Assembly: GCA_031362565.1 (NCBI GenBank)
Contig: JANLSU010000069.1
Span: forward strand, 1 to 64,000
DNA from: a bacterium
Lineage (GTDB): Bacteria > Krumholzibacteriota > Krumholzibacteriia > G020349025
DNA length: 64,000 nucleotides
Direction of reading: 5' to 3'
Shown: piece by piece, positions 33,367-51,543 of the stretch
Layout: each line of letters starts with the position of its first letter
How positions within the stretch are numbered: position 1 is the first letter of the stretch
Made by a program: the position numbers and the translations under genes
Notes under the pieces: generated by a model
Told to the model about the DNA's origin: nothing
Database searches by the model: none
What the model saw: the letters and a program-made list of their open reading frames with translations, nothing else

Positions 33367-35790
33367 TCAGAAGGTCTTGCTCCAAGCCACGCCCATCGAT
33401 GGCAGGATCGTGAACCACGTTTCTTCGTCGCGGTCGAGCGTCATGTTGCCGGCCGGATCGAAGCGGCGGAAGTAGTCGTAGCCGAAAACGTTGGCGTGGT
33501 TGGTGAGGTTCACCATCTCCACGAAGAAGCGTAGGTCGCCGCGGCGCGTCGTCCAACGGCGCGTCGCGCGCACGTCGAAGCGGTAGTAGGCCGGTAGGCG
33601 GGCGCCGTAGATCTTCAGCGGCCGCACGGCCACGTCGGGCTCGCCGTCCTCGTCGAGCACCGGGACCAGCGCCTCGAGTGTCGCGGGCCAGCCCGAGTGC
33701 AGCGCCAACGACCCGTTCAGCGACCACTTCTGCCGCCAGTGGTACGTGAAATCCACGTTGGCAGCGTGGCGTTGATCCTGTGGGATCTCGTGCTTGCGGT
33801 CGAACGTCACGGCCCAATCGGTGTTGACGCTCTCGATCCGGTCGACTTCCTCTTCGGCGAGCGACAGCGCGTAGTTGGCGCGCATCGACAGCCGTTTCCC
33901 GAGCCGGTGATCGAAATACAACTCGAGCCCCTTGGATGTGGTCCGGCTCGGGGTGACGAGGATCCGGTCCTCGTTGGTTTCCGGGAACGTGTCGATTCCA
34001 CTCTTCCAGTTGCGGTACACGGGCCGCAGGTCCCGGCCCGACTTGTAGTAGACCTCGGCCCGCAAGAGGGCGCCGTTGTGAAAGTCTTGTTCGAGTCCCG
34101 CCGTCCACTGTTGTGAGCGCTCCGAATCGAAGTAGCGGTTGTCGTTGTTGAGCGCCGCAACGTCATCGATCCCCTGCATTTGACGGTAGATGCCCCAGCC
34201 GGCCCGCAACGTCCGGCCGCCGCCGATACTCAACGCGGCGCCGACGCGCGGGCTGAAGTCACGGTCCTTGGTGTACGAAGCCTGGTCGTACCGCGCGCCG
34301 GTCTCCAGAACGAGCGGACTCGCGACGCGCCAGCGATTCGAGGCGTAGACGCCGAGCCGCGTTCCGATCCGGCCGGACCTGGCATTGGTGACGATGGGGT
34401 AGACGGCGTTCGGATCTTGCGCCGGATCGTTTGGATCCTGCGCGACGATGCTGGTGAAGGAATCGGTGTTGCGCAGCCGCCGCAGATCGACGCCATAGCT
34501 CAGGATATCGGCCTCCGAAAGTCCCGTTGTCCAATCCTGCTTGAAGCCCAGAATCGAGAAATCGCGATTGTTGGTCAGCGTGTAGAGCGGCAGGGAGCTG
34601 AAGTAGTAGCGCTCGAACCCATCGCGGTGCCGGGTGACCAGGCCGGCGGACAACAGGGTGCGGACCGCGGTTCGAGGCCCGAGCACCGACTGCAATGTGC
34701 TCCACACGTAGGCGTTGCCATAGCGATTGCGGGCGTTCTCGCGCGTCTTCAGCGAGTCCTGGAAGCCGGTCGTCGACGGCGCGTTGAACTTGTACTTGTC
34801 GCCCGCATAGAGAGCATCGAATGTGAGCTTGTGGTTCGCATTCAACCGGACCTGGAGTTTGGCGAAGACGTCGTGGTAGCGCGGCGACGGCAGTTCGTCC
34901 TGTTGGATCATTTTGAACACGAGATCCATGAAGCCGCTGCGGGCCGATACCAGCCAGGAGCCCCGGCCATTCCAAAGCGGCCCGCGCCCCATGGCGCGCG
35001 CGTTCATGAAGCTGAGCCCGACGCTGTACGTCGTGTGATCCGGTTCCGGCGTCCGCGACGTGATGTCGAAGACCCCACTGCGCTTGTTGCCGTACTGCGC
35101 CGGGAAACCGCCCGTCATGAGTTGGACGCCGTCGATGGTCTCGGCATCGACGATGCTGAGGGCGCCTTCGTCGAAATCCTTCAGATGGTACGGCTCGTAG
35201 AGTTCGAGCCCATCGAGAAGGATGAGCGTTTCGTCGTGCCGGCCGCCGCGAATCGAGAAATGGGCGCCGTAGTCGCCGGAAGACAGCCCCGGCAGCCGGT
35301 TGACCGCCCGGAACACGTCTTCGCCAAGCTGTGGCACGGACTCGATGTCCTCGCGCGACATCGTTTGCCGGGTGGCGGGGTTCTTCTTCATGAACGAGTA
35401 CGTGCCGGGCGTCACGGTGACAGCCTTGAGACGCAGGTAGCGCTGGCTCATCGACAGGTCAAGAACCAGATCCGCGCCGCTCACGACCTCGACGGAGTCG
35501 CGAACCATGTCCTGGTAGCCGACGCGCTTGGCGCGCAGCGTAAAGGTGCCGGGCGCGACACCGTTCAGCACGAAGCGCCCATTGGGATCGGTGCTGGAGT
35601 GGAATTCGGTCCCGGCCAGCGAGACCTCGACTCGAGCGACGGGGTCGCCGGACTCCGAGTCGACGACGCGGCCGCGGATCGAAGCCGGTGTCACTGTGGC
35701 GCCGGGTGCTATGGGCGATTGCGTCGAGTCTGCGAGCGGATTCTGGGCGCGCGCGGTCGCGACCAGACAAACCAGGATGCCGAACAGCAT
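33367..35790 (-). CDS. TonB-dependent receptor with N-terminal carboxypeptidase-regulatory-like domain
   Basis: IRGRVVD...G.F.L..V.PG; plug SIRGG..DE.LILLDG...TGGFPAQYG; C-terminal SKTF; start uncertain. Confidence 0.9.
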   Translation of the reverse strand: MLFGILVCLVATARAQNPLADSTQSPIAPGATVTPASIRGRVVDSESGDPVARVEVSLAGTEFHSSTDPNGRFVLNGVAPGTFTLRAKRVGYQDMVRDSVEVVSGADLVLDLSMSQRYLRLKAVTVTPGTYSFMKKNPATRQTMSREDIESVPQLGEDVFRAVNRLPGLSSGDYGAHFSIRGGRHDETLILLDGLELYEPYHLKDFDEGALSIVDAETIDGVQLMTGGFPAQYGNKRSGVFDITSRTPEPDHTTYSVGLSFMNARAMGRGPLWNGRGSWLVSARSGFMDLVFKMIQQDELPSPRYHDVFAKLQVRLNANHKLTFDALYAGDKYKFNAPSTTGFQDSLKTRENARNRYGNAYVWSTLQSVLGPRTAVRTLLSAGLVTRHRDGFERYYFSSLPLYTLTNNRDFSILGFKQDWTTGLSEADILSYGVDLRRLRNTDSFTSIVAQDPNDPAQDPNAVYPIVTNARSGRIGTRLGVYASNRWRVASPLVLETGARYDQASYTKDRDFSPRVGAALSIGGGRTLRAGWGIYRQMQGIDDVAALNNDNRYFDSERSQQWTAGLEQDFHNGALLRAEVYYKSGRDLRPVYRNWKSGIDTFPETNEDRILVTPSRTTSKGLELYFDHRLGKRLSMRANYALSLAEEEVDRIESVNTDWAVTFDRKHEIPQDQRHAANVDFTYHWRQKWSLNGSLALHSGWPATLEALVPVLDEDGEPDVAVRPLKIYGARLPAYYRFDVRATRRWTTRRGDLRFFVEMVNLTNHANVFGYDYFRRFDPAGNMTLDRDEETWFTILPSMGVAWSKTF

Positions 35791-35994
35791 CTTGAGCGCA
35801 TGTCGTAGCACCAGTAAGTCCCCAAGGATGTCATGCCAGCATCGAACCAAGTGTCGCACGAATACCCAACCGAACGCTAGAGCCGGGGTGAGAGGGCCGA
35901 GGGCGCCCGGACACGCGGCTGCCTCGCTGCCAAACGGGCGCGAAGAATCCACAGTGCGCCGGTGGGCGCGGCGCGATGACAGGCAACGGGATCT

Positions 35995-37263
35995 CTACCG
36001 AAGCAATAGCAGCTTTCTCTCCTGCACCCGGCCGCCCTCCGGCGTTTGCAGCCGGCAGAGGTAGACGCCGCTCGCCATGCCCGGCGCATGCCAGTGCGAC
36101 GTGTAGCGTCCCGGTTGCCGGGTCCCATCGACGAGCTCCGCCACTTCACGGCCGCACACGTCGTAGATCGCGAGCCGGATGCGCGTCGCACGCTGGACCG
36201 TGAACCCGAGCGCCGTGGCGGCCGGAAACGGATTGGGGAACGCCGGTTCGAGAACGGCGGCCGGCCGATCGAAGACGTTCGCATCCGTCGGCAGGGTCTC
36301 GGCGTCGTAGATGTAGCCGCGCGAGCCGAACGCCGTTCGCCACGTTTCGACGAGGGCCGTGAAGTCCGTCGGCACGATCATGTTCACGTCACGCCAAGCG
36401 ACGATCGGGGTGACGACCGAGTCGGCAATCGAGATGAGCCCATCCGCCCTTTGGATCACGGCCGGCCGGATCGCGTACGACGAGGTGAGCATGAACGGCG
36501 TCCCGACGGCGCCGCTTTGGTAGAGCGCCGCCAGCTCCGGAATCGCCTCGATCGTGCCTTTGTACTGGCCGATCGCAACGATATTCGCGTTCACATCGTC
36601 GACGAAATAGTGGTCGCGATCCTGCGGGCGCCAAACGCCGCTCACCACCGGATCGTTGACGTGATTGGGCGTGCCGCTGCCCATGAGAATGTCGCCCCGC
36701 CAAACGGCCCAGGGATAGTGCTCGCCCGAGACCGGTACGCGGTAGCGGTCCCACGCCTGGAATTGCGGCAGCGCCGGATCCCAAACGTGACCGCCGATCA
36801 CGGTGGTCGGCTCGACCCCAAGCGAATCGATGAGATGCGCGACATCCGTATAGTTGTAGCCGCTGCCCTCGTGGGAATGTGCGTCGATGACGCTGCCAAT
36901 ATCTTCTCTCAAATAGCGAAAGAGATTCTTACCGTTCGTCGTCTGCATGAGCGCCGCGTCCTCGTAGAGGAGCGCGCACCGCAGGATCTTCCAGTCCGGC
37001 TGCAGGGACCAGGGCAGGCCGTTGTCGTGCATCAAGTGCGCGACGCCAATGAGCCGGCTGCGCCACGTCAGGTAACTCTGCCGGTTCTGGGTCGATCCCA
37101 GCGTTCCGCCCGGGGTGTTGTCCTCGATATGGGTGAACAGCACGACCTGGACCGGTGGCGACTGGGCGCGCGAACCCAACGGAACGAAAAGGAGGGCGAG
37201 CAGGGGAATGCTCGCGGCGAGGTTGGGAAGCGTTGTCCCACGGACCAGTCGGCGCATCGGCAT
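35995..37263 (-). CDS. Secreted protein, possible metal-dependent (NodB/deacetylase-like) domain + T9SS-A/FlgD-Ig CTD
   Basis: Signal peptide; THIED, DAHSHE; C-terminal FPNPF...IYDV.GREV...ASGVY.CRL...KLLLLR. Catalytic family is a guess. Confidence 0.7.
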   Translation of the reverse strand: MPMRRLVRGTTLPNLAASIPLLALLFVPLGSRAQSPPVQVVLFTHIEDNTPGGTLGSTQNRQSYLTWRSRLIGVAHLMHDNGLPWSLQPDWKILRCALLYEDAALMQTTNGKNLFRYLREDIGSVIDAHSHEGSGYNYTDVAHLIDSLGVEPTTVIGGHVWDPALPQFQAWDRYRVPVSGEHYPWAVWRGDILMGSGTPNHVNDPVVSGVWRPQDRDHYFVDDVNANIVAIGQYKGTIEAIPELAALYQSGAVGTPFMLTSSYAIRPAVIQRADGLISIADSVVTPIVAWRDVNMIVPTDFTALVETWRTAFGSRGYIYDAETLPTDANVFDRPAAVLEPAFPNPFPAATALGFTVQRATRIRLAIYDVCGREVAELVDGTRQPGRYTSHWHAPGMASGVYLCRLQTPEGGRVQERKLLLLR

Positions 37264-37411
37264 GCCAAGAGGATAACTCTCGCCGGAGCCCCGTGCCTAC
37301 GGCTGATTCCAGCCCGACCACTCTGGCAGGCCGTCGCCAGGCGGTGTATGCTCGGCACCCGACGCATCGATCGAAGCGTACCTTCGCGCCCAATGGGGCA
37401 ATGGAGGCCGA

Positions 37412-37873
37412 ATGAGACGAAAGCCACCGCGCCCGGGCGTCACCCAATGCACCGCGGCGTTCGCAATCATGTTGTGCGCGGCTTGGGGCTCCCCATCCAG
37501 CGCCGGCGAGCGCCCAGACTCTGCAACACCATTCCTCGCCCAGGCGCCCGCGGAGTCGCCATGCGACGATTCCTTGTATATCGAACTGCGGAAAAAGTCT
37601 CTCGATCAAATGAGCCAACGCGAGTACGAGTTCTTCTTGCAGAAGGACCAGCAGTGTGGCGAATACCGCAAGTGGATCTTGACGCGCGGGGATCGACCGA
37701 CGCCAAGCGCGTCGCCCCTTCCAGGGTCGAGCCCGAAGTGGCCCCGCGATGGAGAGGGCGAGCTTGCCCAGGAGCCGGCCGTGAACGGCGCGATTAACGC
37801 CGTGGCGATCGTTGTCCTGTCCGTGTTTGCAACCATCGGAACGCTCTTGTTTCTAGTCGCCATCAGCGACTAG
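37412..37873 (+). CDS. Hypothetical exported protein with C-terminal TM anchor
   Basis: Signal-like N-terminus, PCDDSLY..L.KK.LD.MS.REY.FF.QKD..C, terminal hydrophobic helix. Confidence 0.6.
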   Translation: MRRKPPRPGVTQCTAAFAIMLCAAWGSPSSAGERPDSATPFLAQAPAESPCDDSLYIELRKKSLDQMSQREYEFFLQKDQQCGEYRKWILTRGDRPTPSASPLPGSSPKWPRDGEGELAQEPAVNGAINAVAIVVLSVFATIGTLLFLVAISD

Positions 37874-37981
37874 GGAGGTGCCCGCGATGATGCGTTCCGT
37901 GTCGCGCCTCGAAGTCGGCCGAGCGGTCCGACTGTGACACTGTAACGCCTCGCCCGTGCTCTTCCAGCTCTCGCGTCCGGC

Positions 37982-40900
37982 TCAGCGCAGCACCGCGAGC
38001 TTGCCGCGCACTTCCTGGATCGGCGCACCGGCCGGTCGCACGCCAAGCCTGTAGAGGTAGATGCCGCTCGCCACCGCATGGCCGTGAGTGCTCTTGCCAT
38101 TCCACTGGAGCAATCCCCGGCGCAGGCCGTCATGGTGTTGGCGGGTGCGGAAGACCTCCCGGCCATCGACGCTGAAAACCCGCAGCTCGATGTCGGCCGC
38201 GATGTCGAGTAGGAAGGCGAAGTCGGCGCCGGCGCGGGTCGGATTCGGACCGGCACGGAAGTCGGTGAGGCGTAGGATTGGCGCCCCGATGATCTCGAAA
38301 TCGAGGCTTGCCGATGCCGCATTCCCAAGGTTGTCGGATGCGAACAACGTGGCTTGATGCGATCCGGGTGCTAGCGCCGGAAGTGGCACGGAAACCGTTC
38401 CCGACCGGTCGGAGCCCGCGCTCGATCGATACGCCGTCGTGACTTCGATCAGGTCACCACCGTCCAGTTGAACGCGGATCGAACTCGCGGGCGTGAGTCC
38501 CGCGATCCAAATCCCGTTGTCATCGTCGAGCGTGGCTGTCAGCAACGCACCGGACACCACGCGGCGAGCATCGCCCGGGAATGTGAGGCGGATTTGCGGC
38601 GGCGCCAGCGATGAGTCCGGTGCCTCGCCGCGCCTGAGAATGACACCGTCGCGCCCGCCTTTCGCATCCAGCAGTGCGTTCCACGCGTACGCCGCGACCC
38701 GACCACCGGGAAGGAGGCGGGTGTTCTTGGCGCTCGCGCTGTCGCTGTCCAATGGCGGTGGCACGGTGAACTCGAAGGCGAAGCGGCCAGCGCGGACCGG
38801 CACCGAACCGCGATAGACCGGGGCGCCCGGAAGGACGTAGGGGATCACGAGTGGCGGCGGCTCCGTGCGTCGATAACCGCTCGCGTCGGCGTTCCCGAGG
38901 ACCTCGATCTCGGCTTGCCCGTCGAAGCTGGCCAGCGGATCCGTCTTCCCGGGCAGATGGACGATGCCCTCGATCCGGGCGCGCCGCCCGACGGCGAGCG
39001 AATCGGCTCCCGATGTAAATGTGACGGTGGCTTTTGGCACGTTCAAGACGAGCGCGGGGTCGCCAAGCAACATGAAGTGCTCGGTGCCCGTGTTCGGCCG
39101 CCCCTTGGCGAGGCGGTGGACGAGGCCGATCGGCTGCGGGGCGGCGATGCCGGCTCGGAAGAGTTGGGCGAATTGCTGTACGGCAAGCCCAAAACCTGCT
39201 CCGAGGTAGCTCGCCGTTGTCGGTCCGATCGCGGCGATGGCACCGCCGTTCGGCGACGCGACCAGGCGTTCCTCATAGCTCTGTGTCGTGGTGCGATCGA
39301 ATTCCGCTGCGTCGTCGTGGAATTGGAGGACGAGCGGCAACCGCGCGCCGTTCGTGAGCGCCGGCACGTCGCTGGCGAGCAGCAGAACCTCGTCTGCAAG
39401 CTGACTGGCGCTGCCACGTCCTTGATAGCTGAAGAGAGCACAACCCTCGTTCCAGGCTCGAATGAGCGCCGCTCGAGCCGCCGGCTTCTGGGACGCGACG
39501 AGCGGGTATTCGGTCATGTAGACCTTGTCGACGTCGAACTCCGGTGGAATCGTCGCGACCAGATCCTCGGCGTTGTCGATGAAATAGGTTTCATAGCAGC
39601 CGGCGCTCGGGTTGCACTCGTCGTCTGCTGCAATCAGAACACGGCCGCGCCACGGTCCGAATAATGGCTCACTTTCGTAGGCCAGGATCTTGTCTGCCAT
39701 CTGGTCGGCCTCGAGCAGGTCGCGCGCCGGCAACCGGCCAATCGACACGTCGGCCTGTGGAATGAAGGCAACTCCAGCGGGCGGTCGATGCATCGCGACG
39801 AACCAGTCTTCGACGGCGTAGGCGCGACCGGACCGTGGATCGGCATACAGCGGATGGACCGTTGGCACGAGCGTCGGCGGAGTATTTGGAAGAACCTGCC
39901 GGGGATCGCGCGTCGCATCGCCGAGCAGAAGGAGATATGCAAGCCGTGGCTCACTCGACAAGCCGTACAGCCACTTGATCCAGTTCCGGATCGCGAGCGG
40001 ATCTTGGCGGCCGCCAGAGAAGTTATCGTAGATGTCGCGCGTCGTCGTGACGAGAACATCGGGATTCGAAACGCCGGGAAGGTGGTTACGACGGTGTGCG
40101 GCGAGCCGTTCGGCGGCCGGCAAGAGGTCCGGGTGCGTCACAATCAGCATGTCCGGGGTTGTGGTGCGGGATCGAAGCGGTGCGACATCCCGCATCTCGA
40201 GGTCGGTTGCTGCATCCAGCCGGCGTGGCGTGGCGGTCGCGAGATAGTGGACCCGATGGCCGGCGGCGCGCGGGTCTCGGACCCGCCAGCGAGCGGAGTC
40301 GGCGACCGGCGTCAGGCCGGTGAGGCGCACCGGCCGCAGGCGATCTGTCACGTCGAGAAGGAGGGGTTCGATGGCGCCAAAGCCCCCGAACTCCTCGACG
40401 TGCGGAGCGGCTTCGGGGCGCGTGCTCCAGGCAAGTTCGCCGCGTGCGTCGGCCATCAGCGATCGAGCCCACGTCACGTCGAATTCGAAGAGGTACACGA
40501 TGCCGGAGGACGATTGGCTCGTGCGTCGCAAAATGAGTCTGTTGTGGGCGCGCAACGACGCCAGCTCGAACGTAAATGGCTCTGCCGCGTTGGGGTGGAA
40601 GTTGGTCGCGCTGCCGATCGCGATGTCGTTGAGCTGGACAGCGATCGCATTGTTGCCGGACAGATAGTAAGTGCCGATGAGCAAGCGAATCGCTCCGATT
40701 GCCGTGGAGTCGCCGCCCAGATCTAGATCGAAGTCGATGGTCGTCGGGGTCTCGCGGCGAATTTGCTGCCAAGCCAGCAGGTCTCCGAAATCTACGAAGG
40801 CGTGATCTTCCTCGAGATGCTCGCGATGCCACACGCGCGTCACGAGAGGATCCGTCACCGGCTCAGGCGCCGACGCGGAGCGCGATTCCATTCGCAGTCC

Positions 40901-41377
40901 GGGAGCGCCTCCCCAAACCAGCCAGCCGTACTCGAAACGGTCGTAGGGATGCTGCGAGTAGGCGAGCGAATCCGCTACACCGGCCAGGTCGTCCCACCCA
41001 GCCGGTCCGAGCGCGTAAAACACGACGCGATCCTCGGCGTCGAGCTTGCCGTCCTCCTGGCCAGGGACCCAAATGGCGACCTCGCTCATCTCGTAACCCG
41101 GCTGCCAGCTCGCGGGTATCGAGTCGGGGAGCAACGGCGCCGCCTTCCAACTGTCGAACACGAGGCGCAGGGTGCGCGGATCGAACCCTGGATCGTGCAC
41201 TGGTACGCCGGCAATGGCGAGATCTGCAGGTGACAACTCGTAGATGCCACGCGCGGGGATTCGGATCCGGAGCCGGGTCATGGGGAGTTCGGAGGCCTCG
41301 GCACGCGTGTTGGCAAGCACGAGAATGGCAACGCAGACGGTGAGGCGGCGAACAGCAACCGAAATGCGGTCGCGCAT
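37982..41377 (-). CDS. PorU/gingipain-like peptidase C25 protein with FlgD-Ig CTD; catalytic dyad apparently substituted
   Basis: Own signal peptide; GIYEL..., EVAIWV.G.EDG, DIYDNFSGG.QDP.AIR, YLLLLGD, IGRLP, GGAIA, LLGDPAL; same frame as the upstream DUF4403-like region with no stop. Confidence 0.88.
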   Translation of the reverse strand: MRDRISVAVRRLTVCVAILVLANTRAEASELPMTRLRIRIPARGIYELSPADLAIAGVPVHDPGFDPRTLRLVFDSWKAAPLLPDSIPASWQPGYEMSEVAIWVPGQEDGKLDAEDRVVFYALGPAGWDDLAGVADSLAYSQHPYDRFEYGWLVWGGAPGLRMESRSASAPEPVTDPLVTRVWHREHLEEDHAFVDFGDLLAWQQIRRETPTTIDFDLDLGGDSTAIGAIRLLIGTYYLSGNNAIAVQLNDIAIGSATNFHPNAAEPFTFELASLRAHNRLILRRTSQSSSGIVYLFEFDVTWARSLMADARGELAWSTRPEAAPHVEEFGGFGAIEPLLLDVTDRLRPVRLTGLTPVADSARWRVRDPRAAGHRVHYLATATPRRLDAATDLEMRDVAPLRSRTTTPDMLIVTHPDLLPAAERLAAHRRNHLPGVSNPDVLVTTTRDIYDNFSGGRQDPLAIRNWIKWLYGLSSEPRLAYLLLLGDATRDPRQVLPNTPPTLVPTVHPLYADPRSGRAYAVEDWFVAMHRPPAGVAFIPQADVSIGRLPARDLLEADQMADKILAYESEPLFGPWRGRVLIAADDECNPSAGCYETYFIDNAEDLVATIPPEFDVDKVYMTEYPLVASQKPAARAALIRAWNEGCALFSYQGRGSASQLADEVLLLASDVPALTNGARLPLVLQFHDDAAEFDRTTTQSYEERLVASPNGGAIAAIGPTTASYLGAGFGLAVQQFAQLFRAGIAAPQPIGLVHRLAKGRPNTGTEHFMLLGDPALVLNVPKATVTFTSGADSLAVGRRARIEGIVHLPGKTDPLASFDGQAEIEVLGNADASGYRRTEPPPLVIPYVLPGAPVYRGSVPVRAGRFAFEFTVPPPLDSDSASAKNTRLLPGGRVAAYAWNALLDAKGGRDGVILRRGEAPDSSLAPPQIRLTFPGDARRVVSGALLTATLDDDNGIWIAGLTPASSIRVQLDGGDLIEVTTAYRSSAGSDRSGTVSVPLPALAPGSHQATLFASDNLGNAASASLDFEIIGAPILRLTDFRAGPNPTRAGADFAFLLDIAADIELRVFSVDGREVFRTRQHHDGLRRGLLQWNGKSTHGHAVASGIYLYRLGVRPAGAPIQEVRGKLAVLR

Positions 41378-41499
41378 CGACAAACACGGGCCCAGGCGGG
41401 TGTGCATCGAGACTCTTTCTGATTGGGCAGTACTCGCGCCGGACATTGTACACCCGAACGTGGCGTGACCGGCGGAAACCCATGGACCTGTCGAGGATC

Positions 41500-42988
41500 G
41501 GATCCTGGCCCGGGCGAGTACGCGGTCGACGGCGAGCCGCGCCTGTCCTTCGGCGAGGGCGCGGACGACCAGGTGATCTTGCGTCGCCCAGACGGCCATG
41601 CCGCGCGAGCCACTCAAGGTCACCTGCAGCCGCGCGCCAGCGGTGAGCTCGCGGTTCATCCCGTTTTCGGCCAGGCGTTGCAACCGGGCGAGGGCGGACG
41701 AGTCCGGGATCACCGCGTTGGCTCGCAGGACGTCGCGCACCTTGCCGCCTTGCCACCACGAGAGGCCGCGCGCCACCAGGTGAGTGCTTCCGACGTCGAA
41801 GTCGAGGTCGGGGACCGCGAGCTGCCGCGTCGCGACGTCGAGCTGCGGGGTCCCGGTGAGAAAGATGCGCCCCTGCATCGCGCCGCTGAACGTTACACCC
41901 AGCGCGACGCGCCCGCTGCCGATGCCGCGCAACGTGATGTCCTCGATGCGCATGCGGCGCCCCGCCATGCGGATCACTCTGCCGACGAGCGATTTGCGCA
42001 TCAGGTCCGTCGCGGCGTCGTACGAGAAGACCCCCTCGAGAACGACATGCAGCCCGGCGTCAGTGCCAGTGCCGGTGCCGGCGTCGGCGCTGGGGTCGGG
42101 CGTCGTCCGGAGCGCCGGTAGGGGCGTCACGAGAGTGCTGTCCTCCAGGCGCATCTCGGTGACGATCCTCGGCCGAGCTTCGAGGCGCAGAACAGCAACC
42201 AACGTGTCGCCACCGCCGCTGAACGATGCGAGCTGCGTCGCGCCGGGCTGAATCAACAACCACACCCCATCGGTGAGCCGGATCGGCCGCTCCATCTTTT
42301 TCCAGATGCCGTCGATCCGGCGGCGCATGTCGACTCGTGCCACCTGCTGATCGAATCGTGCGAGCCGGCGGGTCATTTCCTCACCCAGCGCGCTCGCGAC
42401 CTTGCCGGTGACGTCGACGTGCAGAAAGGTCACGCTACATTGGTCGCGTGGCTCCGTGAACCGGACGATGTCAGCGTGGGTGCGCGTCCGCAGCCCCCAT
42501 TCGGTGGTGAATGACGGAGTACTCACGATGCGCAAAAGCAGCCGGGGTTTGGGATCGCTGCCCCCGCCGCAGCCGGCGCTCATCTCCGGAGCGAGCGGTG
42601 GGTCGTACCAGGCGCGTGCCTCATACTCGAGTGTTGTCTCGATGACGATCTCGGACCCCTCGACACGCACCGAAAACGGCGAGCGGCGCGCCGTGAATGC
42701 AAAGGAGGAACGTGCGGTGCTGTCGGCGCGGATTCGCTGCTCCAGCGAGCCGAAACGGCGCGGCACGTCGGCCTCGAATTGGGCGATCGCCGGCCCGAGG
42801 TCGAAGATGATTGGCGCAATCAGGATCGACGCCGGCACTCGCGGCAGAGTTTCCGCGACGTCGGGCGTCAGCGACGGCTCGGGAGCGGCGACGTGAATCG
42901 GGAGGATCCACACCCGCCAGACGAAATAAGCGGCGACCGCGAGCGCGAGGGCGGCCCCGCCGATCAACCAACCACGCTTTGCCATCAT
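41500..42988 (-). CDS. DUF4403-like protein (N-terminal TM, TULIP/AsmA-like); no stop codon, reads into the C25 gene
   Basis: IWKKMERPIRL...WL.IQP, G.IFLTGTP.LD....L.VPDLDFD; GAGG RBS; the low coordinate marks the approximate domain end. Confidence 0.7.
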
Positions 42989-43171
42989 GTCCTCGCGCGG
43001 CAAGGCGCCTTTGGCACTGGTGCTGGCGCGGGCCCGACGATTCCGCCGCGGCCCAGGATATCATAGTGGGACATGCGGGGCGCCGACGCGGTCGGCGCGC
43101 GAGCCGCCGGGGTGAATTCTGCTAAAGTGTCCGCCTTCAAAAGGCTTTGGGGGATCGGTGAGAGCAAGGTC

Positions 43172-44047
43172 ATGATCGTTCACCTGGTTGACGGCACATA
43201 CGAGCTCTTCCGCCACTTCTACGGCCTGCGCCGCATCAACGACGGCAAGGCCCGGCCTTTCGGCGCCGTGCATGGCGTCTTGCACACCGTGCTGGAAATG
43301 ATCGAGACCGGCGCGACTCACATCGGCGTCGCGACCGATCATGTCATCGAGTCCTTCCGGAATGACCTTTGGTCCGGTTACAAGACGGGTGCCGGCATCG
43401 AGCGCGGGCTGTGGATGCAGTTTCACCCTCTCGAGGAAGCCTTGAGCGCCATGGGTGTTGCGGTGTGGCCGATGGTCGAGCTGGAAGCGGACGACGCGCT
43501 CGCGTCGGCGGCACGGATCGCGTCCGCCAGCCCGGGCGTCGAGAAGACCTGCATCTGGACACCCGATAAGGATCTGGCGCAGTGCGTCCGTGGCGACCTC
43601 GTCGTGCAAGTCGACCGCAAGAGCAACAAGATCCGCGACGCGGCCGGGGTGCGCGAAAAGTTCGGGGTCGAGCCCGCCCTGATCCCCGATTTCCTCGCCC
43701 TGGTTGGCGACGCCGCGGACGGCTACCCGGGTATCGCCGGAATCGGGCGGGTCACGGCGGCGCGGCTCTTGAATCGCCACGGTGCAATCGAGGCCTTCCC
43801 AGCCGACGTGTTGGGGGATCAGCGCGAGCTCGCGCTCTTGTTCAAGGATCTGGCGACGCTTCGGACGGATGCCAGCCTCTTCAATGACGCACGAGATATC
43901 TTCTGGCACGGCCCGACCGATGCGTTCGCCGCCTGCGTGGCGCGCCTCGGTGATCCTCGACTGTTGGAGAGGAGCCTCAAAGCGCGCGGTGCAATCGGAT
44001 CAAAAAAGAAGGCCTCCCGATCACCCCGCAGCGATGGGAGGCCTTGA
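43172..44047 (+). CDS. Stand-alone 5'-3' exonuclease/flap endonuclease (PolI N-terminal-like)
   Basis: LVDG, FRNDLW.GYK, EADD, DKD, ALVGD.ADGYPG..GIG..TA. Confidence 0.92.
   Translation: MIVHLVDGTYELFRHFYGLRRINDGKARPFGAVHGVLHTVLEMIETGATHIGVATDHVIESFRNDLWSGYKTGAGIERGLWMQFHPLEEALSAMGVAVWPMVELEADDALASAARIASASPGVEKTCIWTPDKDLAQCVRGDLVVQVDRKSNKIRDAAGVREKFGVEPALIPDFLALVGDAADGYPGIAGIGRVTAARLLNRHGAIEAFPADVLGDQRELALLFKDLATLRTDASLFNDARDIFWHGPTDAFAACVARLGDPRLLERSLKARGAIGSKKKASRSPRSDGRP
44002..44045 (-). terminator. Intrinsic terminator for the histone-like gene
   Basis: AAGGCCTCCC/GGGAGGCCTT stem followed on the minus strand by CTTTTTT. Confidence 0.75.
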
Positions 44048-44065
44048 GCGGCGATCCGGCCCGAT

Positions 44066-44344
44066 CTACTTCGCGGTTGTCTTCTTCGCGCTCTTCTTGC
44101 GGCCGGCCTTCTTGCCGGCTCTCTTCGTTGCCGCTTTCTTCGTCGCGGCCTTCTTCGTGCCGGCCTTCTTCACGCTCTTCTTCTTGGCCGCCTTCTTCTT
44201 GTCGGCCTCGGCCTTGCTCTTCTTCGCCAGGTCGGCGCGATGCGCGCGCTCGTACGTCTGCATGTCGGTGATGCGGCCCTTCGCGTCGCGGACAGCGTAG
44301 AGTTTCTTCCCGGCGCTGCTGCGATGCGTCGTGCGTTTCGCCGT
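44066..44344 (-). CDS. Small Lys/Ala-rich histone H1-like protein (ACG at the expected start)
   Basis: AKRTTHRSS.GKKLYAVRD.KG core + KKAA repeats; AAGGAG 6 nt before ACG. Confidence 0.75.
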   Translation of the reverse strand, partial: TAKRTTHRSSAGKKLYAVRDAKGRITDMQTYERAHRADLAKKSKAEADKKKAAKKKSVKKAGTKKAATKKAATKRAGKKAGRKKSAKKTTAK

Positions 44345-44748
44345 GACGAACTCCTTTGAGAATGAAACGAGATTCGAGGCCACGAACTCCGACGTTGCGA
44401 GCTTCCATCTCGAGCTGAAAACGCATTCAAGCAATCGCCGCGAGTCTTGTCAACTCTCAGGTGGACGCTGCCTGACTCGTGACTCCTCCCCGTGTTCAAA
44501 CGGGCGATGCCCAACGTTGACCGTGCATGTCGCTCGGAGTACGATCCGCCCGAAGAGCAACGACGCGTCGGACTCGTGCGCAGGCTCAAGTGGGCCTCGC
44601 GATGGGAGCGTCGGCTCGGTCGCTTTCGTTCGGGGAGACGCACGTCACGCCGTGGGGCTCGGAGCAAGAGTTCGTGTATTGCTACTGATCGCATGCCGAA
44701 CTGACGAGCGTGGCGTCGTGCCATGGTCGGTATTGTGAAAGGCAAGCG

Positions 44749-45564
44749 GTGACCGATAACGCGGATGCTTCTCGCAGGCTCGCAGCCGAGTATTCGGCAA
44801 AGGCTACGGAGTATGCGCGCCGTTGGGCACCCGTACTCCACCCAATGGCTCGCGTCCTCCTCGGAGCATTGCCGCTCGAAACTGCGCGTCACGTCCTGGA
44901 CCTGGGTTGTGGCACGGGAGACCTGCTGGCCGACCTGCGCGCCGCCGCTCCCAGTGCGAGCCTGATCGGAGGCGATCGGGCGGAAGGTATGGTCCGAGTC
45001 GCGCGGCAGACCGAGTCGTGCAGTCTGCTGGTGACGGACGCCGAATTTCTGGGGTTGCGAGCCGAGACGTTCGACGTTGCGGTCCTGGCCTTCATGCTGT
45101 TTCACGTACCCGACCCGGCCGCGGCGCTGCGCGAGGTCTGGCGCGTGCTCCGGCGGAATGCGTTCGTTGGCATTGCAGTGTGGGGAACGGACCCGGGCAC
45201 CCCAGGCGCGGCGATCTGGACCGAAGAGCTGGACGCGAGTGGTGCCGCGCCGGATCCGCGCGATGCTCTCGTGATGGGGCAAGCTCGCATGAACACTGTC
45301 GAGCGGCTCGCTGTGCTGCTGCGCCAGGCGGATTTCCCGCCCCAGCGGATCTGGAGCGAGTGCTTCGCCCATCGGTGGACGGTGGAGGCCTTGTTGGGGA
45401 TGAACACGAGTTGCGGAATGCCGGCTCGAAGACTGGCCAGCTTGTCGAAGAAGGCGCAGGCGAGCTGCTGCGAGCGAGTTCGGTCGCGCATCATGACGTT
45501 CGCTGCCGACGACCTCGTCCATCGCCCCGAGATCTTGTTCGCCGTAGCCCGCCGACCGGCCTGA
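44749..45564 (+). CDS. Class I SAM-dependent methyltransferase
   Basis: VLDLGCGTG, FDVAV..FMLFHVPDP..ALRE..RVL. Confidence 0.88.
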   Translation: MTDNADASRRLAAEYSAKATEYARRWAPVLHPMARVLLGALPLETARHVLDLGCGTGDLLADLRAAAPSASLIGGDRAEGMVRVARQTESCSLLVTDAEFLGLRAETFDVAVLAFMLFHVPDPAAALREVWRVLRRNAFVGIAVWGTDPGTPGAAIWTEELDASGAAPDPRDALVMGQARMNTVERLAVLLRQADFPPQRIWSECFAHRWTVEALLGMNTSCGMPARRLASLSKKAQASCCERVRSRIMTFAADDLVHRPEILFAVARRPA

Positions 45565-48534: not shown

Positions 48535-49122
48535 TCAGGGTTTGTGCTTCATCGGCACCTTGAGTTCACCCAGCTCCACGATCATGTCCTCGGCCGAGGT
48601 CGGCGGCCGGACCTGCTTGTCGATGAAGGCGATCTTGCCATTCTTGTCGATGTAGAAGGTCCAGCGGTTGGAGAAGCCGCGTGGGTTCATGACGCCGTAC
48701 GCGGTCGCGACTTCCTGGGTTGGATCGGCGAGGATGGGGAAGTCGGCCGCTGCCTTTTCGACGACCTTGGCGGTTTCTCCCTGGCCGAGCGTCACCGACG
48801 TCGCCTTTGCGAACGCCGCGTTGTCGGCGACCGAATCGACGCTCGCCATGAAGTACGCCACGTCATACTTCCGGATCTTGGCGCCGTTTTCGGCCAGTGA
48901 CTTGCATTCGATCGTGCAGCCGCCCGTGAATGCCTTGGGGAACCAGGCCACAACTACGGCCTTCTTGCCTTTGAAGTCCGCCAGCTTGTACGTCTTGCCG
49001 TCGGACGCTTGGAGCGCAAAGTCTGGGGCCTGATCGCCGACCTTGAGTTCGACGCCACGCACGGGCGCAGTCACTCCCATGGCCAGGCTTGCAGCGACTG
49101 CAATCGTCAACATCCGACGCAT
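48535..49122 (-). CDS. Exported peroxiredoxin (BCP/PrxQ-like)
   Basis: Signal peptide; APDF, WFPKAFTGGCTIEC, RWTFYID. Confidence 0.88.
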   Translation of the reverse strand: MRRMLTIAVAASLAMGVTAPVRGVELKVGDQAPDFALQASDGKTYKLADFKGKKAVVVAWFPKAFTGGCTIECKSLAENGAKIRKYDVAYFMASVDSVADNAAFAKATSVTLGQGETAKVVEKAAADFPILADPTQEVATAYGVMNPRGFSNRWTFYIDKNGKIAFIDKQVRPPTSAEDMIVELGELKVPMKHKP

Positions 49123-49158
49123 TCACGAACCTCCTGGGTCGATACGACTTCGTGGCGG

Positions 49159-50359
49159 TTAGGGCCTGGATTCGGCACCGTCGCCGCTGCCGCGGTGTGA
49201 TGGATCGAGCTCGGCGATCTTGCGCGTCAGCGCCTGGGTCAGGAACGGCAGGTGCCCGGCGACGCCGATTGCGGCGTTGCGCACCGATCGCGCTGCCGGC
49301 GACCCGAGCGTCGCCATCCGCGTCATGCGATCGGTGAACGCCACAACCTCCCCGGCAACCTTTGTGGCGGTGGCTGGCCCAAGCATCGAGCCGCTCGGTG
49401 TCGGCACCACCAATCACGTCGGCCAGCACACCGGCGAGCGACATCGCATCCTGAATGCCGGTGTTCATGCCCTGGCCGCCGGCCGGGCTGTGTACGTGGG
49501 CTGCGTCCCCACAGAGCAGCACGCGCCCTTTCCGGGGGCTCTCGGCGACCCGATGGTGGACGCGGAACCGTGACGACCAGACGCTGTCTTGGATCTGCGC
49601 CTTCTTGGCGTGCGGGCCGCGCGCGTCGAGCAGGTCCTGGATGTAGGCGGCCGAAGGCTGCTCCGGCGCATCGTCGGCCGTGGCGACGATGCGGTAGCGG
49701 TTCTCGGGCAGCGGCGCCACGACAACGAAACCTTCCGGCGCGAAGAAGAGGCTTCCCTCGTCCTGGGGGAGCGGCCAATCCATGTGCACGTCGGCCAGTA
49801 CGAAGCTCTGATCGTACACGGCGCCCGAAAACCCGATCTTGGCGTTATCCCGAACGCGGCTGTGCATGCCATCGCAGCCGACGATCCAACGCGCCCGGAC
49901 CGTTTGTGCGACGCCATCCAGAACGATGTCGGCTTCGCCGCCGTCAGGCGTGACACGCACCGCGGTCGCTTCGGCCGGGCGCACGACGTCGCCGCCCAGC
50001 GCTTGTAGCCGTGCGAGTAGGATCGCCTCGGTACAATTCTGTGGGCACATCAGAGTGAAGGCGTACTGGCTCGGAATTTCCTTGAAGTCGAGCGCCAGGA
50101 GGGTTCGATCGTGGTCGCGGACGCGAAAGATTGGCACCTTCAAACCCTGCTGCAGCATCGTTGGGACGACGCCGAGGGGCTCCAAGACTTCGAGGGTGCG
50201 GGCATGCACGACGGCGGCCCGCGAGGTGTTGGCGCCTTCGGAGAGTTTGTCGATCGTGATTGCCTCGACACCGCGCCGGCGAAGTTCAGCCGAGAGCGCC
50301 AGGCCCGTCGGGCCCGCACCGATGATCAGGATCTCCATTTGTGAAGGCATGGTTCGCAT
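49159..50359 (-). pseudogene. FAD-dependent monooxygenase, frameshifted near the 3' end
   Basis: GAGPTG, GCDG..SRVR, GDAAHVHSPAGGQGMNTGIQDA; homology continues in another frame after about 49362 (KVAGEVVAFTDRMTR...). Confidence 0.85.
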
Positions 50360-50547
50360 CTCTGTTTCTTCGGAACAGTCGACACGCGTGTGGCTCGCGG
50401 GGCGAAACGGAACTATACCGGTCAGGGCAGGGAGGCAACAACCACCGACCGGCCGCACCCGAGGCCGGGCCACGGGCGCCGTACAGGTTTGCAGCAGAGT
50501 TTTGAGCCCTCGTGATTCGAGCCCGACCTGCGTATTGCCTTCGCTGT

Positions 50548-50727
50548 TTACGTGCCGGGCGGGTCGCGGCGGCGCGTCTTGGCGACTCCACTCACGATCC
50601 CCATTCCCAGCAGGACGACAACGCCCACGCCGATCCACCGTGGCGGCAAGTGGAGCATGCTGGCGGCGACCGCCAATCCGGCGATGAGGATCATGTATCC
50701 GATGATGTAGAGAACGAACGACGACAT
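50548..50727 (-). CDS. 59-aa two-TM membrane protein
   Basis: AAGGAG RBS; MSSFVLYIIG...GVAKTRRRDP. Confidence 0.75.
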   Translation of the reverse strand: MSSFVLYIIGYMILIAGLAVAASMLHLPPRWIGVGVVVLLGMGIVSGVAKTRRRDPPGT

Positions 50728-50785: not shown

Positions 50786-51223
50786 TCAACCGCGGACGGT
50801 GAATCCTTTGGTTTCCTTCATTGCGCCGTTCAAGCCAATGCGTACCTGGTGCTTTCCAGCCGGCCACGGACCCGGATTGACGATGTAAAAGCTCGTGTAG
50901 CCGGTGCCGGGTTGGTTGGTCACGAGTTCCTTCTCGGAGACGACCTGTTCGGTCCCGCCCTCCGTGAAGAGCCAGCGCGCACTGATTCGAGTGCCGACGG
51001 GGGTGCTCTCGGTCTTGACCGATGCAAAGATCGTATCGCTGGGTGTAAAGGTGTCGACCGCGACGTTCACCTGCTGCGCGCTGTTGACCGCGCGCCCGAG
51101 CGAAACGTCGGTAACCATGGCGGTTGCCGGTGCTTGGTTCGCCTCTTTCTTCGCGCAGGCCACGACCAGCATCAGCGCAATAGCGGCGCATGATGCCTTG
51201 AATGCAGAAGCATTTGTACGCAC
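50786..51223 (-). CDS. Lipoprotein with Ig-like domain
   Basis: Lipobox VVAC; F.PSDTI.ASV...WP.G...V; AGGAGG RBS before GTG. Confidence 0.75.
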   Translation of the reverse strand: MRTNASAFKASCAAIALMLVVACAKKEANQAPATAMVTDVSLGRAVNSAQQVNVAVDTFTPSDTIFASVKTESTPVGTRISARWLFTEGGTEQVVSEKELVTNQPGTGYTSFYIVNPGPWPAGKHQVRIGLNGAMKETKGFTVRG

Positions 51224-51237
51224 GTCGACCCTCCTGG

Positions 51238-51543
51238 TCACGGGATGATGAATTTCTGCCCCGGGTAGATGAGATCCGGGTTCTTGATCTGATCACGATT
51301 GGCGTCGTAGATTTTCCGCCATTGGTTGGCGTTGCCGTAGAATTGGTGCGCAATCTTCGAGAGACTGTCGCCGCTCTTGACCTCATAGGTTGTTGCCGCT
51401 TTTGTTGCAGCAGCAGGCACCGCGGGTGAGGCAACCGGCTCCGTGCGGAGCGTCGAATTGCCTCCAGACCGAACGCCGGTAAAACCGCGCTCCGCAGCAT
51501 CTGGTTTCTTGTTCTTCCCGAAAATCTTGTCGAGAAAACCCAT
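51238..51543 (-). CDS. Small LysM-domain protein (YgaU/Kbp C-terminal-like)
   Basis: YEVKSGDSLSKIA..FYG....W..IY.ANRD.IKNPDLIYPGQ. Confidence 0.9.
   Translation of the reverse strand: MGFLDKIFGKNKKPDAAERGFTGVRSGGNSTLRTEPVASPAVPAAATKAATTYEVKSGDSLSKIAHQFYGNANQWRKIYDANRDQIKNPDLIYPGQKFIIP

Follow-up and report, generated by a model that had tools for sequence, protein, structure and literature searches.

The window analysed here is a stretch of 64,000 nucleotides (contig JANLSU010000069.1 of assembly GCA_031362565.1, from a bacterium of the phylum Krumholzibacteriota), and its minus strand carries a gene (37982..41377) for a paralog of PorU, the sortase in type IX secretion systems (T9SS), in which both members of the catalytic dyad are replaced. 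An arginine (Arg654) occupies the position of the histidine, and an aspartate (Asp688) that of the cysteine. The protein is real and conserved, and it is most likely a pseudo-peptidase. We are highly confident that it is not a cysteine peptidase or sortase, and judging from its sequence there is about an even chance that it is exported and binds, without cutting, a ligand of the sorting pathway. By profile and fold it is a C25/PorU homolog; since it fails the catalytic features and the linkage to porV, it should not be called a PorU sortase.

PorU is generally regarded as a single-copy essential enzyme. According to one account (PMC10202324), its Cys/His dyad cuts the C-terminal domain (CTD) and transfers the cargo to anionic lipopolysaccharide (A-LPS), the CTD of PorU itself staying on PorV, and latency comes from a dimer in which a hairpin of one monomer lies on the catalytic domain of the other. 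The C690A mutation abolishes cleavage (PMC4560394 and PMC5121618). A literature search, with subscription journals and supplements mostly outside its scope, found nothing on PorU paralogs lacking the dyad, and nothing on a type IX system from Krumholzibacteriota.

Replacement of the catalytic dyad

A first-pass annotation, made from the letters of the window, had read SYQGRG at the histidine motif and placed an aspartate codon at the cysteine motif, and codons and alignments agree with both. The codons AGC TAT CAA GGA CGT GGC spell SYQGRG, with the CGT of Arg654 at 39418-39416, and TTC CAC GAC GAC spell FHDD, in which His687-Asp688-Asp689 span 39311..39319 (minus strand) and the GAC of Asp688 lies at 39316-39314. 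When the protein is aligned by phmmer with Porphyromonas gingivalis PorU (6za2_A, E 1.9e-40), Arg654 falls on the catalytic His of LLNYAGHGG and Asp688 on the catalytic Cys of ITATCDF, and the register is identical when the protein is aligned pairwise with an intact PorU from the same genome, to which it is 46% identical. The catalytic His of the G-H-G motif is thus absent in the PorU alignments, and in an alignment of the paralog's clade neither a further conserved Cys at the site nor a substitute His/Cys pair was found. Four cysteines are found in all (15, 588, 594 and 646): 588 and 594 are shared with 18 of 21 canonical PorUs, Cys646 is an Ala in the relative P0008, and none of the four is placed or conserved as a replacement nucleophile. 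The equivalent of Arg722, 32 residues past the cysteine, is Thr721, at a position that is not diagnostic, with Arg in 2 of the 21 local canonical PorUs and in 127 of 260 catalytic segments. The acidic motif Asp585-Asp586-Glu587 (39617..39625, minus strand), which aligns with ASAEGG of RgpB (1cvr), is retained, and it is invariant across the Arg-type clade described below, its His/Cys sisters and all 21 canonical PorUs.

The protein matches PF01364 over the entire model (1-374 of 374; E 3.4e-68, 231 bits with a gathering score of 23). The PorU model NF033707, for which the cut-off is 420 bits, is matched over 8-1094 of 1095 with a score of 483, as befits a full-length architecture; P0004, P0005 and P0008 also pass this cut-off, as do, with them, all four full-length Arg-type proteins. 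PorU2 (NF052324) is likewise a second PorU-like C25 protein, but the paralog is not a member, since it scores 95 bits where 450 are required. The ESM Atlas returns only generic C25 clusters.

An AlphaFold model built on a 60-sequence alignment (predicted local distance difference test, pLDDT, 90.2; predicted template modelling score, pTM, 0.85) keeps the PorU/gingipain fold; the catalytic domain folded from its sequence alone reached a pLDDT of 37.8, too low for use. The top Foldseek match of the model is PorU (E 3.8e-56), and residues 407-783 superpose on RgpB (4ief_D) with Z 40.0 and a root-mean-square deviation (rmsd) of 2.5 over 321 aligned residues. Arg654 comes after strand 648-652, and Asp688 after strand 682-685; these are the usual places of the dyad in the gingipain-type fold. 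The likeness to the gingipains RgpB and Kgp (1CVR, 4IEF, 6I9A) lies in the catalytic fold (Z 36.6-40.0, rmsd 2.5-2.8, about 321 residues), and the paralog differs from them in having neither dyad nor propeptide and in bearing an N-terminal cluster of the PorU type.

The gene encodes 1131 residues without an internal stop, an alternative ATG lying 10 codons upstream, and all its features are on the minus strand. A Sec-type signal peptide (residues 1-28; 41294..41377) is recognised from its basic start, hydrophobic core and AEA end; its peak hydropathy is 3.08, and like cores occur in all five short-clade relatives checked, as judged by hydropathy. The N-terminal beta-domain cluster follows as in PorU (residues 34-400; 40178..41278), 6za2_A being aligned to the model over 25-1033, and then the C25 gingipain-type catalytic domain without its dyad (residues 410-778; 39044..40150), given by PF01364 and the RgpB match. 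The first Ig-like domain (38618..39037) projects a hairpin (about residues 828-852, with model strands 835-837 and 843-845), presumably the equivalent of the PorU latency hairpin, and this segment is conserved in the Arg-type clade. A second Ig-like domain (residues 921-1030; 38288..38617), placed by alignment to PorU and by the model, leads to the C-terminal sorting domain (PNP...GKLAVLR; 37985..38287). Signal peptide and CTD, both features of T9SS cargo or components, are therefore present, as the first-pass annotation had said, but the CTD has diverged: where the CTDs of the local PorUs are conserved, it retains no more than 44-46% of the positions. Its best non-self matches in the genome are PorU CTDs (39-40%), it superposes on the CTD of PorZ (5m11) with Z 10.1, and taken alone it reaches no Pfam or NCBIfam CTD family. 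The claim of an intact PorU architecture of roughly 1130 residues is correct when P. gingivalis PorU is the standard; the local PorUs, however, have an additional N-terminal domain, some 200 residues long, that is absent here.

Compared with PorU of P. gingivalis (PG0026; 6ZA2; NF033707; PF01364/MEROPS C25), the paralog is alike in domain order, length, signal peptide and CTD. It differs in the His-to-Arg and Cys-to-Asp changes, in having no equivalent of Arg722 and no adjacent porV, in being an extra copy beside intact ones, and in belonging to a host outside Bacteroidota.

Error in sequencing or assembly, which the first-pass annotation had already thought unlikely to suffice, has practically no chance of explaining the Arg/Asp pair. 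The genome is metagenome-assembled, word depth is about 10 and the evidence is at contig level, all of which leave such an error some room. However, a Logan contig of run X1 (a contig, not raw reads, from a run that may be the source sample and hence not independent) spans 35000-40165 with no differing letter, and six further sequences, drawn from JGI, Logan and elsewhere, carry the same Arg, along with many linked substitutions. These independent homologs refute the error. Positions 40209-45000 lie in a second contig from that run, which departs from the window by a single letter and by a gap of 15 bases at 44187, in neither the paralog nor the DUF4403 gene upstream of it; run X2 gives only short pieces, and run X3 nothing over the window.

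A conserved Arg-type clade

Arginine stands at the His position in seven sequences: the paralog, P0004, P0005, P0008, P0124, P0390 and locus L051. Four of them are full length (1127-1136 aa), keep signal peptide and CTD intact, and are 58-74% identical; among all overlaps of at least 400 residues, pairwise identity runs from 57 to 90%. An alignment of 260 catalytic segments, from which three proteins without such a segment were left out, contains 239 with His and Cys, seven with His and Ser, four with Arg and Asp, three with His and Glu, and one each with Arg and Asn, Arg and Ser, His and Asp, and His and Gly, three more being unaligned. With 239 of 260 segments carrying His and Cys, the Arg/Asp register of the paralog is not due to chance.

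The site has also gained residues that are fixed in the clade. Arg654 is found in all seven members that cover it, and in the six that cover positions 687-697, His687, Arg695 (39293..39295, minus strand) and Thr697 are invariant and position 689 is Asp or Asn. Position 695 is Ile in both His/Cys sisters and variable in canonical PorUs, and has become Arg in each of the six. Other positions vary, namely 688, the Cys site (D,D,D,D,N,V), and 656 (S,N,N,A,S,G). Because only 30 of 137 weakly constrained background columns are invariant among Arg-type members, several newly fixed residues at a single site are unlikely to have arisen by drift alone.

Selection on the gene is purifying: the ratio of nonsynonymous to synonymous substitution rates (dN/dS) between the paralog and L051 is 0.22 over 645 codons, for a pairing whose dS of 1.46 is near saturation and which ends at residue 655. 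The two intact PorUs of the host, compared with each other, give 0.15 (dS 0.31). Identity among the four members of full length is 64% in the site segment, within the 51-75% found in the other segments. As far as these sequences can tell, the active site is one that was rebuilt, then kept, in the Arg-type clade.

The Arg-type proteins and two His/Cys sisters, P0006 and P0007, together make up a short-form clade (support 100). All its members are without the N-terminal domain of about 200 residues, have a diverged CTD in common, and share three pocket changes (His599 to Phe/Trp, Asn728 to Gly/Ala, Asn732 to Ala/Ser) at positions that are near-invariant across the 21 canonical PorUs. With all columns included, the Arg-type rows are one clade (support 99/97). 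Without residues 646-736, either the branching order is not resolved or the sisters nest among the Arg-type rows, and Arg-type monophyly is not rejected by the approximately unbiased test (p-AU 0.265 and 0.397). The Arg-type stem has a length of 0.41 on the site alone, and there is no resolved stem without it. Within residues 646-735 the Arg-type proteins retain 0.53-0.62 of the canonical positions, against 0.76-0.78 in the sisters, and the other nine segments differ little. A single loss of the dyad is the simplest reading of these data. The history would then start with a duplication, after which an accessory short-form PorU lost its propeptide-like domain and altered its pocket residues and CTD, changes shared with the His/Cys sisters, and the dyad would have been lost once thereafter. 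A regain of the dyad by P0006 and P0007 was considered and rejected: the two are nested in two site-free trees and unresolved in a third, monophyly is not rejected, and a mixture model makes P0006 basal. With His and Cys intact in an altered pocket (TIGCN motif), P0006 and P0007 are candidate PorU paralogs with a new specificity, and would be the best controls for the present protein.

On a FastTree of 255 rows there are at least eight Cys/non-Cys changes and three His/Arg changes, His+Ser forms being counted as non-Cys and not as dead, as they may be active. P0175, a distant PorU, has a separate His-to-Arg change together with Cys-to-Ser. In P0031 the Cys has become Ser, the second Ig domain is missing and the terminal CTD is of the cargo type. 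P0016, P0017, P0028, P0269 and P0027 are neighbouring extra PorU copies that keep His and have Glu or Asp for Cys, with pocket changes of their own (His599 to Trp, Asn728 to Ser/Thr).

Intact PorUs and the type IX machinery of the host

In the host genome, which measures 5.4 Mb and is 100% complete, there are 13 C25 matches, and the 12 other than the paralog keep His and Cys. As the first-pass annotation had proposed looking for, catalytically intact PorUs are present elsewhere: two stand in tandem on contig C85, 45-46% identical to the paralog and directly upstream of porV. The essential sortase job is thereby covered, and the paralog is an extra copy without an adjoining porV. Most related genomes have a single PorU match. 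porV is found in 27 of the 29 loci holding the relatives' best PorU, the exceptions being an extra copy in genome G002 and one locus that is truncated where its contig stops. The tandem locus itself (C85:51306-64443) continues after porV with an M6-like/FG-GAP/CTD gene.

The canonical PorUs of the family (the C85 pair and P0013) are 46% identical to the paralog over the shared length and have in common with it the D-D-E motif and the C588/C594 pair; unlike it, they have the His/Cys dyad, a propeptide-like N-terminal domain and an adjoining porV. This N-terminal domain gives weak PF08126 matches in three of six proteins, and the Kgp prodomain (5mun) is matched at E 0.007. It is seen at L084:13233-13802 and at loci L053, L054 and L055 as a weakly gingipain-propeptide-like domain, absent from P. 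gingivalis PorU and from the short clade. Another C25 gene of the genome (C123:23624-27964, plus strand; 1446 codons) is divergent and PorU-like, with SHAS and FGCHL motifs and a CTD insertion.

SprA is clearly present (TIGR04189, 448.9 against a cut-off of 200), seven genes lie above the NF033709 cut-off of the PorV family, and seven of the eight strongest PorV-family genes sit near a CTD gene. With a rough profile built for the purpose, about 226 open reading frame (ORF) ends look like CTDs. The search for PorZ returned CTD-only matches, none above cut-off, and GldM and GldN gave no match in the host genome, yet the control genomes gave none either. The genome thus has SprA, at least seven PorV-family barrels, about 226 CTD-like ORFs and 13 C25 genes, but gave no match to GldM, GldN (controls being silent for these two) or full PorZ, and may possibly encode a reduced type IX-like system outside Bacteroidota. 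Close homologs carry the NCBI names Candidatus Krumholzibacteriia or Latescibacterota.

Proposed function and rival explanations

In the mechanism that we propose, the paralog would be exported by Sec and then by the SprA translocon, and retained at the surface through its CTD on one PorV-family barrel. Particular shuttle barrels serve particular CTDs in Flavobacterium (PMC12618676), and the diverged CTD may route the paralog to a different barrel of the family. The N-terminal cluster and the rebuilt Arg/His/Asp pocket, which has two Arg, one His and an Asp/Asn along it, would hold a ligand with neither cleavage nor transpeptidation, candidates being a cargo linker or CTD, or an anionic glycan acceptor. 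Arg654 probably pairs with Glu587, Asp688 or Asp689, closing the site. That the protein is non-catalytic had been suggested at first pass, and the suggestion has held up well, given the clade with shared substitutions, the intact PorUs beside porV, the dN/dS of about 0.22 and the lack of another His/Cys pair; receptor, decoy, scaffold and regulator are all candidate roles for it.

Several points weigh against this picture. Ligand and partner are putative, and the geometry of the site rests on alignment and secondary structure and not on distances. The clade is rare: a search of 207 further genomes from the phylum, the majority with a PorU-type match, brought up no Arg-type member, the best non-self identity being 51% and the top 30 loci consisting of 29 with His/Cys plus the paralog itself. 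A scan of genome contigs found no clade member among 38 loci, and a metagenome scan found one partial locus. Of the known members, P0124 is out of frame and two more are fragments. No PorV-family gene is found on the contig of the paralog, whose GC content at third codon positions (GC3) is 0.76 against 0.80-0.81 in the intact copies. The dS and the end point of the L051 pairing count here too, and in the host genome the lost stop of the upstream DUF4403 gene could give a membrane-anchored fusion.

The boldest reading gives the paralog a part in regulating active PorU, by analogy with the pseudo-caspase c-FLIP(L). Caspases and gingipains both belong to clan CD. In c-FLIP(L), the catalytic His has become Arg (R315) and the Cys Tyr (Tyr360), and the protein works as a heterodimer with caspase-8 (PMC7586951). 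The likeness lies in the same His-to-Arg change, the lost Cys, the kept fold and an active paralog in the same genome, here 46% identical; c-FLIP(L) differs in being eukaryotic, in bearing death effector domains (DED), in its Cys-to-Tyr change and in having a proven heterodimer function, so that the parallel is one of analogy and not of kinship. A dead copy might pair with active PorU through the hairpin and set its latency or activity, or might compete for PorV; the inhibition of PorU by a hairpin-mediated dimer (PMC10202324) and the conservation of the corresponding segment in the Arg-type clade speak for it. However, the gene is unlinked to the porU-porV locus, the CTD has diverged from that of PorU, the Arg type is absent from the 207 related genomes, and the newly fixed pocket residues favour a ligand over a dimer interface. 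Moreover, one base suffices for His-to-Arg, and the parallel may be cheap. We find such a regulator rather unlikely, and would say the same of its fullest form, a bacterial counterpart of c-FLIP, that is, a pseudo-sortase of the same clan, inactivated by the same His-to-Arg change, that would form a heterodimer through the latency hairpin and control CTD cleavage and anchoring in a reduced type IX-like system (SprA, PorV family, PorU) outside Bacteroidota.

A smaller chance goes to a dispensable accessory copy that is being lost, in a family where PorU is often duplicated and the dyad goes while the fold lingers. The rarity of the clade, the repeated Cys/non-Cys changes, several of them in the family's extra copies (H/E, H/D, H/S), a variable neighbourhood, the lost stop upstream and the frameshifted member fit with this. 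It agrees poorly with four full-length members at 58-74% identity, each with signal peptide and CTD, with the dN/dS found above, and with a site segment whose conservation among members (0.64) lies within the range of the other segments (0.51-0.75). Less probable still is a rewired enzyme, in which His687 and Asp689, perhaps with a metal or water, would do new chemistry while Arg654 and Arg695 hold an anionic substrate. The fixed residues of the site and the retained acidic motif at 585-587 speak for such an enzyme, but 688 and 656 vary, 689 alternates between Asp and Asn, and no Cys or Ser nucleophile has been newly fixed. The variation at 688 in six clade members means that Asp688 is not essential, and it weakens the His-Asp-Asp site that the first-pass annotation had put forward. 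The pseudo-peptidase that binds a ligand of the sorting pathway is the reading that we prefer.

That a dead PorU paralog has been conserved and its pocket rebuilt points to a possible non-catalytic layer in the sorting of type IX cargo, and the protein offers a natural substrate-trap form of PorU for studies of cargo recognition. There is a consequence for annotation as well: all four full-length Arg-type proteins exceed the NCBIfam PorU cut-off and would be called active sortases. The clade is small and uncultured and its partner putative, which limits this significance; a dead PorU that was rebuilt and selected, with its c-FLIP parallel, would surprise a specialist.

Genomic neighbourhood

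The open frame containing the paralog (43003-37982, minus strand) exceeds the gene annotated at first pass and joins, in frame, an upstream DUF4403 gene (PF14356; 41480..42988, minus strand) whose stop has been lost, with TGG at 41482-41480. In the public annotation the two are called as one fused protein of 1667 aa (P0003). An evolved DUF4403-PorU fusion was considered and rejected. Among the matches listed, the last residue falls exactly one position before the TGG codon in 21 of the 35 closest DUF4403 homologs, and none of 120 is another DUF4403+C25 protein; the 47 codons that link the two genes have a non-coding GC profile (0.51/0.72/0.68). Arg-type relatives have signal peptides of their own. 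From these sequences we judge the join to be accidental, the stop codon having been lost recently. The six other genomes of the family yielded no DUF4403. A scan for promoters and terminators at the locus found no more than chance.

Downstream, on the same strand, lie a gene for a secreted protein of 422 aa with a CTD and a body without Pfam family (35995-37263) and, after it, a TonB-dependent receptor (33367-35952). A gene pair encoding a LysM protein and a lipoprotein (50786-51543, minus strand; L051:296-1043) is linked to the Arg-type gene at both loci for which DNA is available. It is immediately upstream of that gene in L051 and 9.4 kb from the paralog here; the two copies are 76% identical in nucleotides, and the pair is the sole match in the genome. 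This linkage at two loci suggests an inherited locus. At 44187, within repetitive sequence of low complexity, the run X1 Logan contig has 15 bases more than the window. Finally, an ORF for an FAD-dependent monooxygenase (48863-50638, minus strand) has its last part apparently out of frame, and overlaps a downstream peroxiredoxin-like gene.

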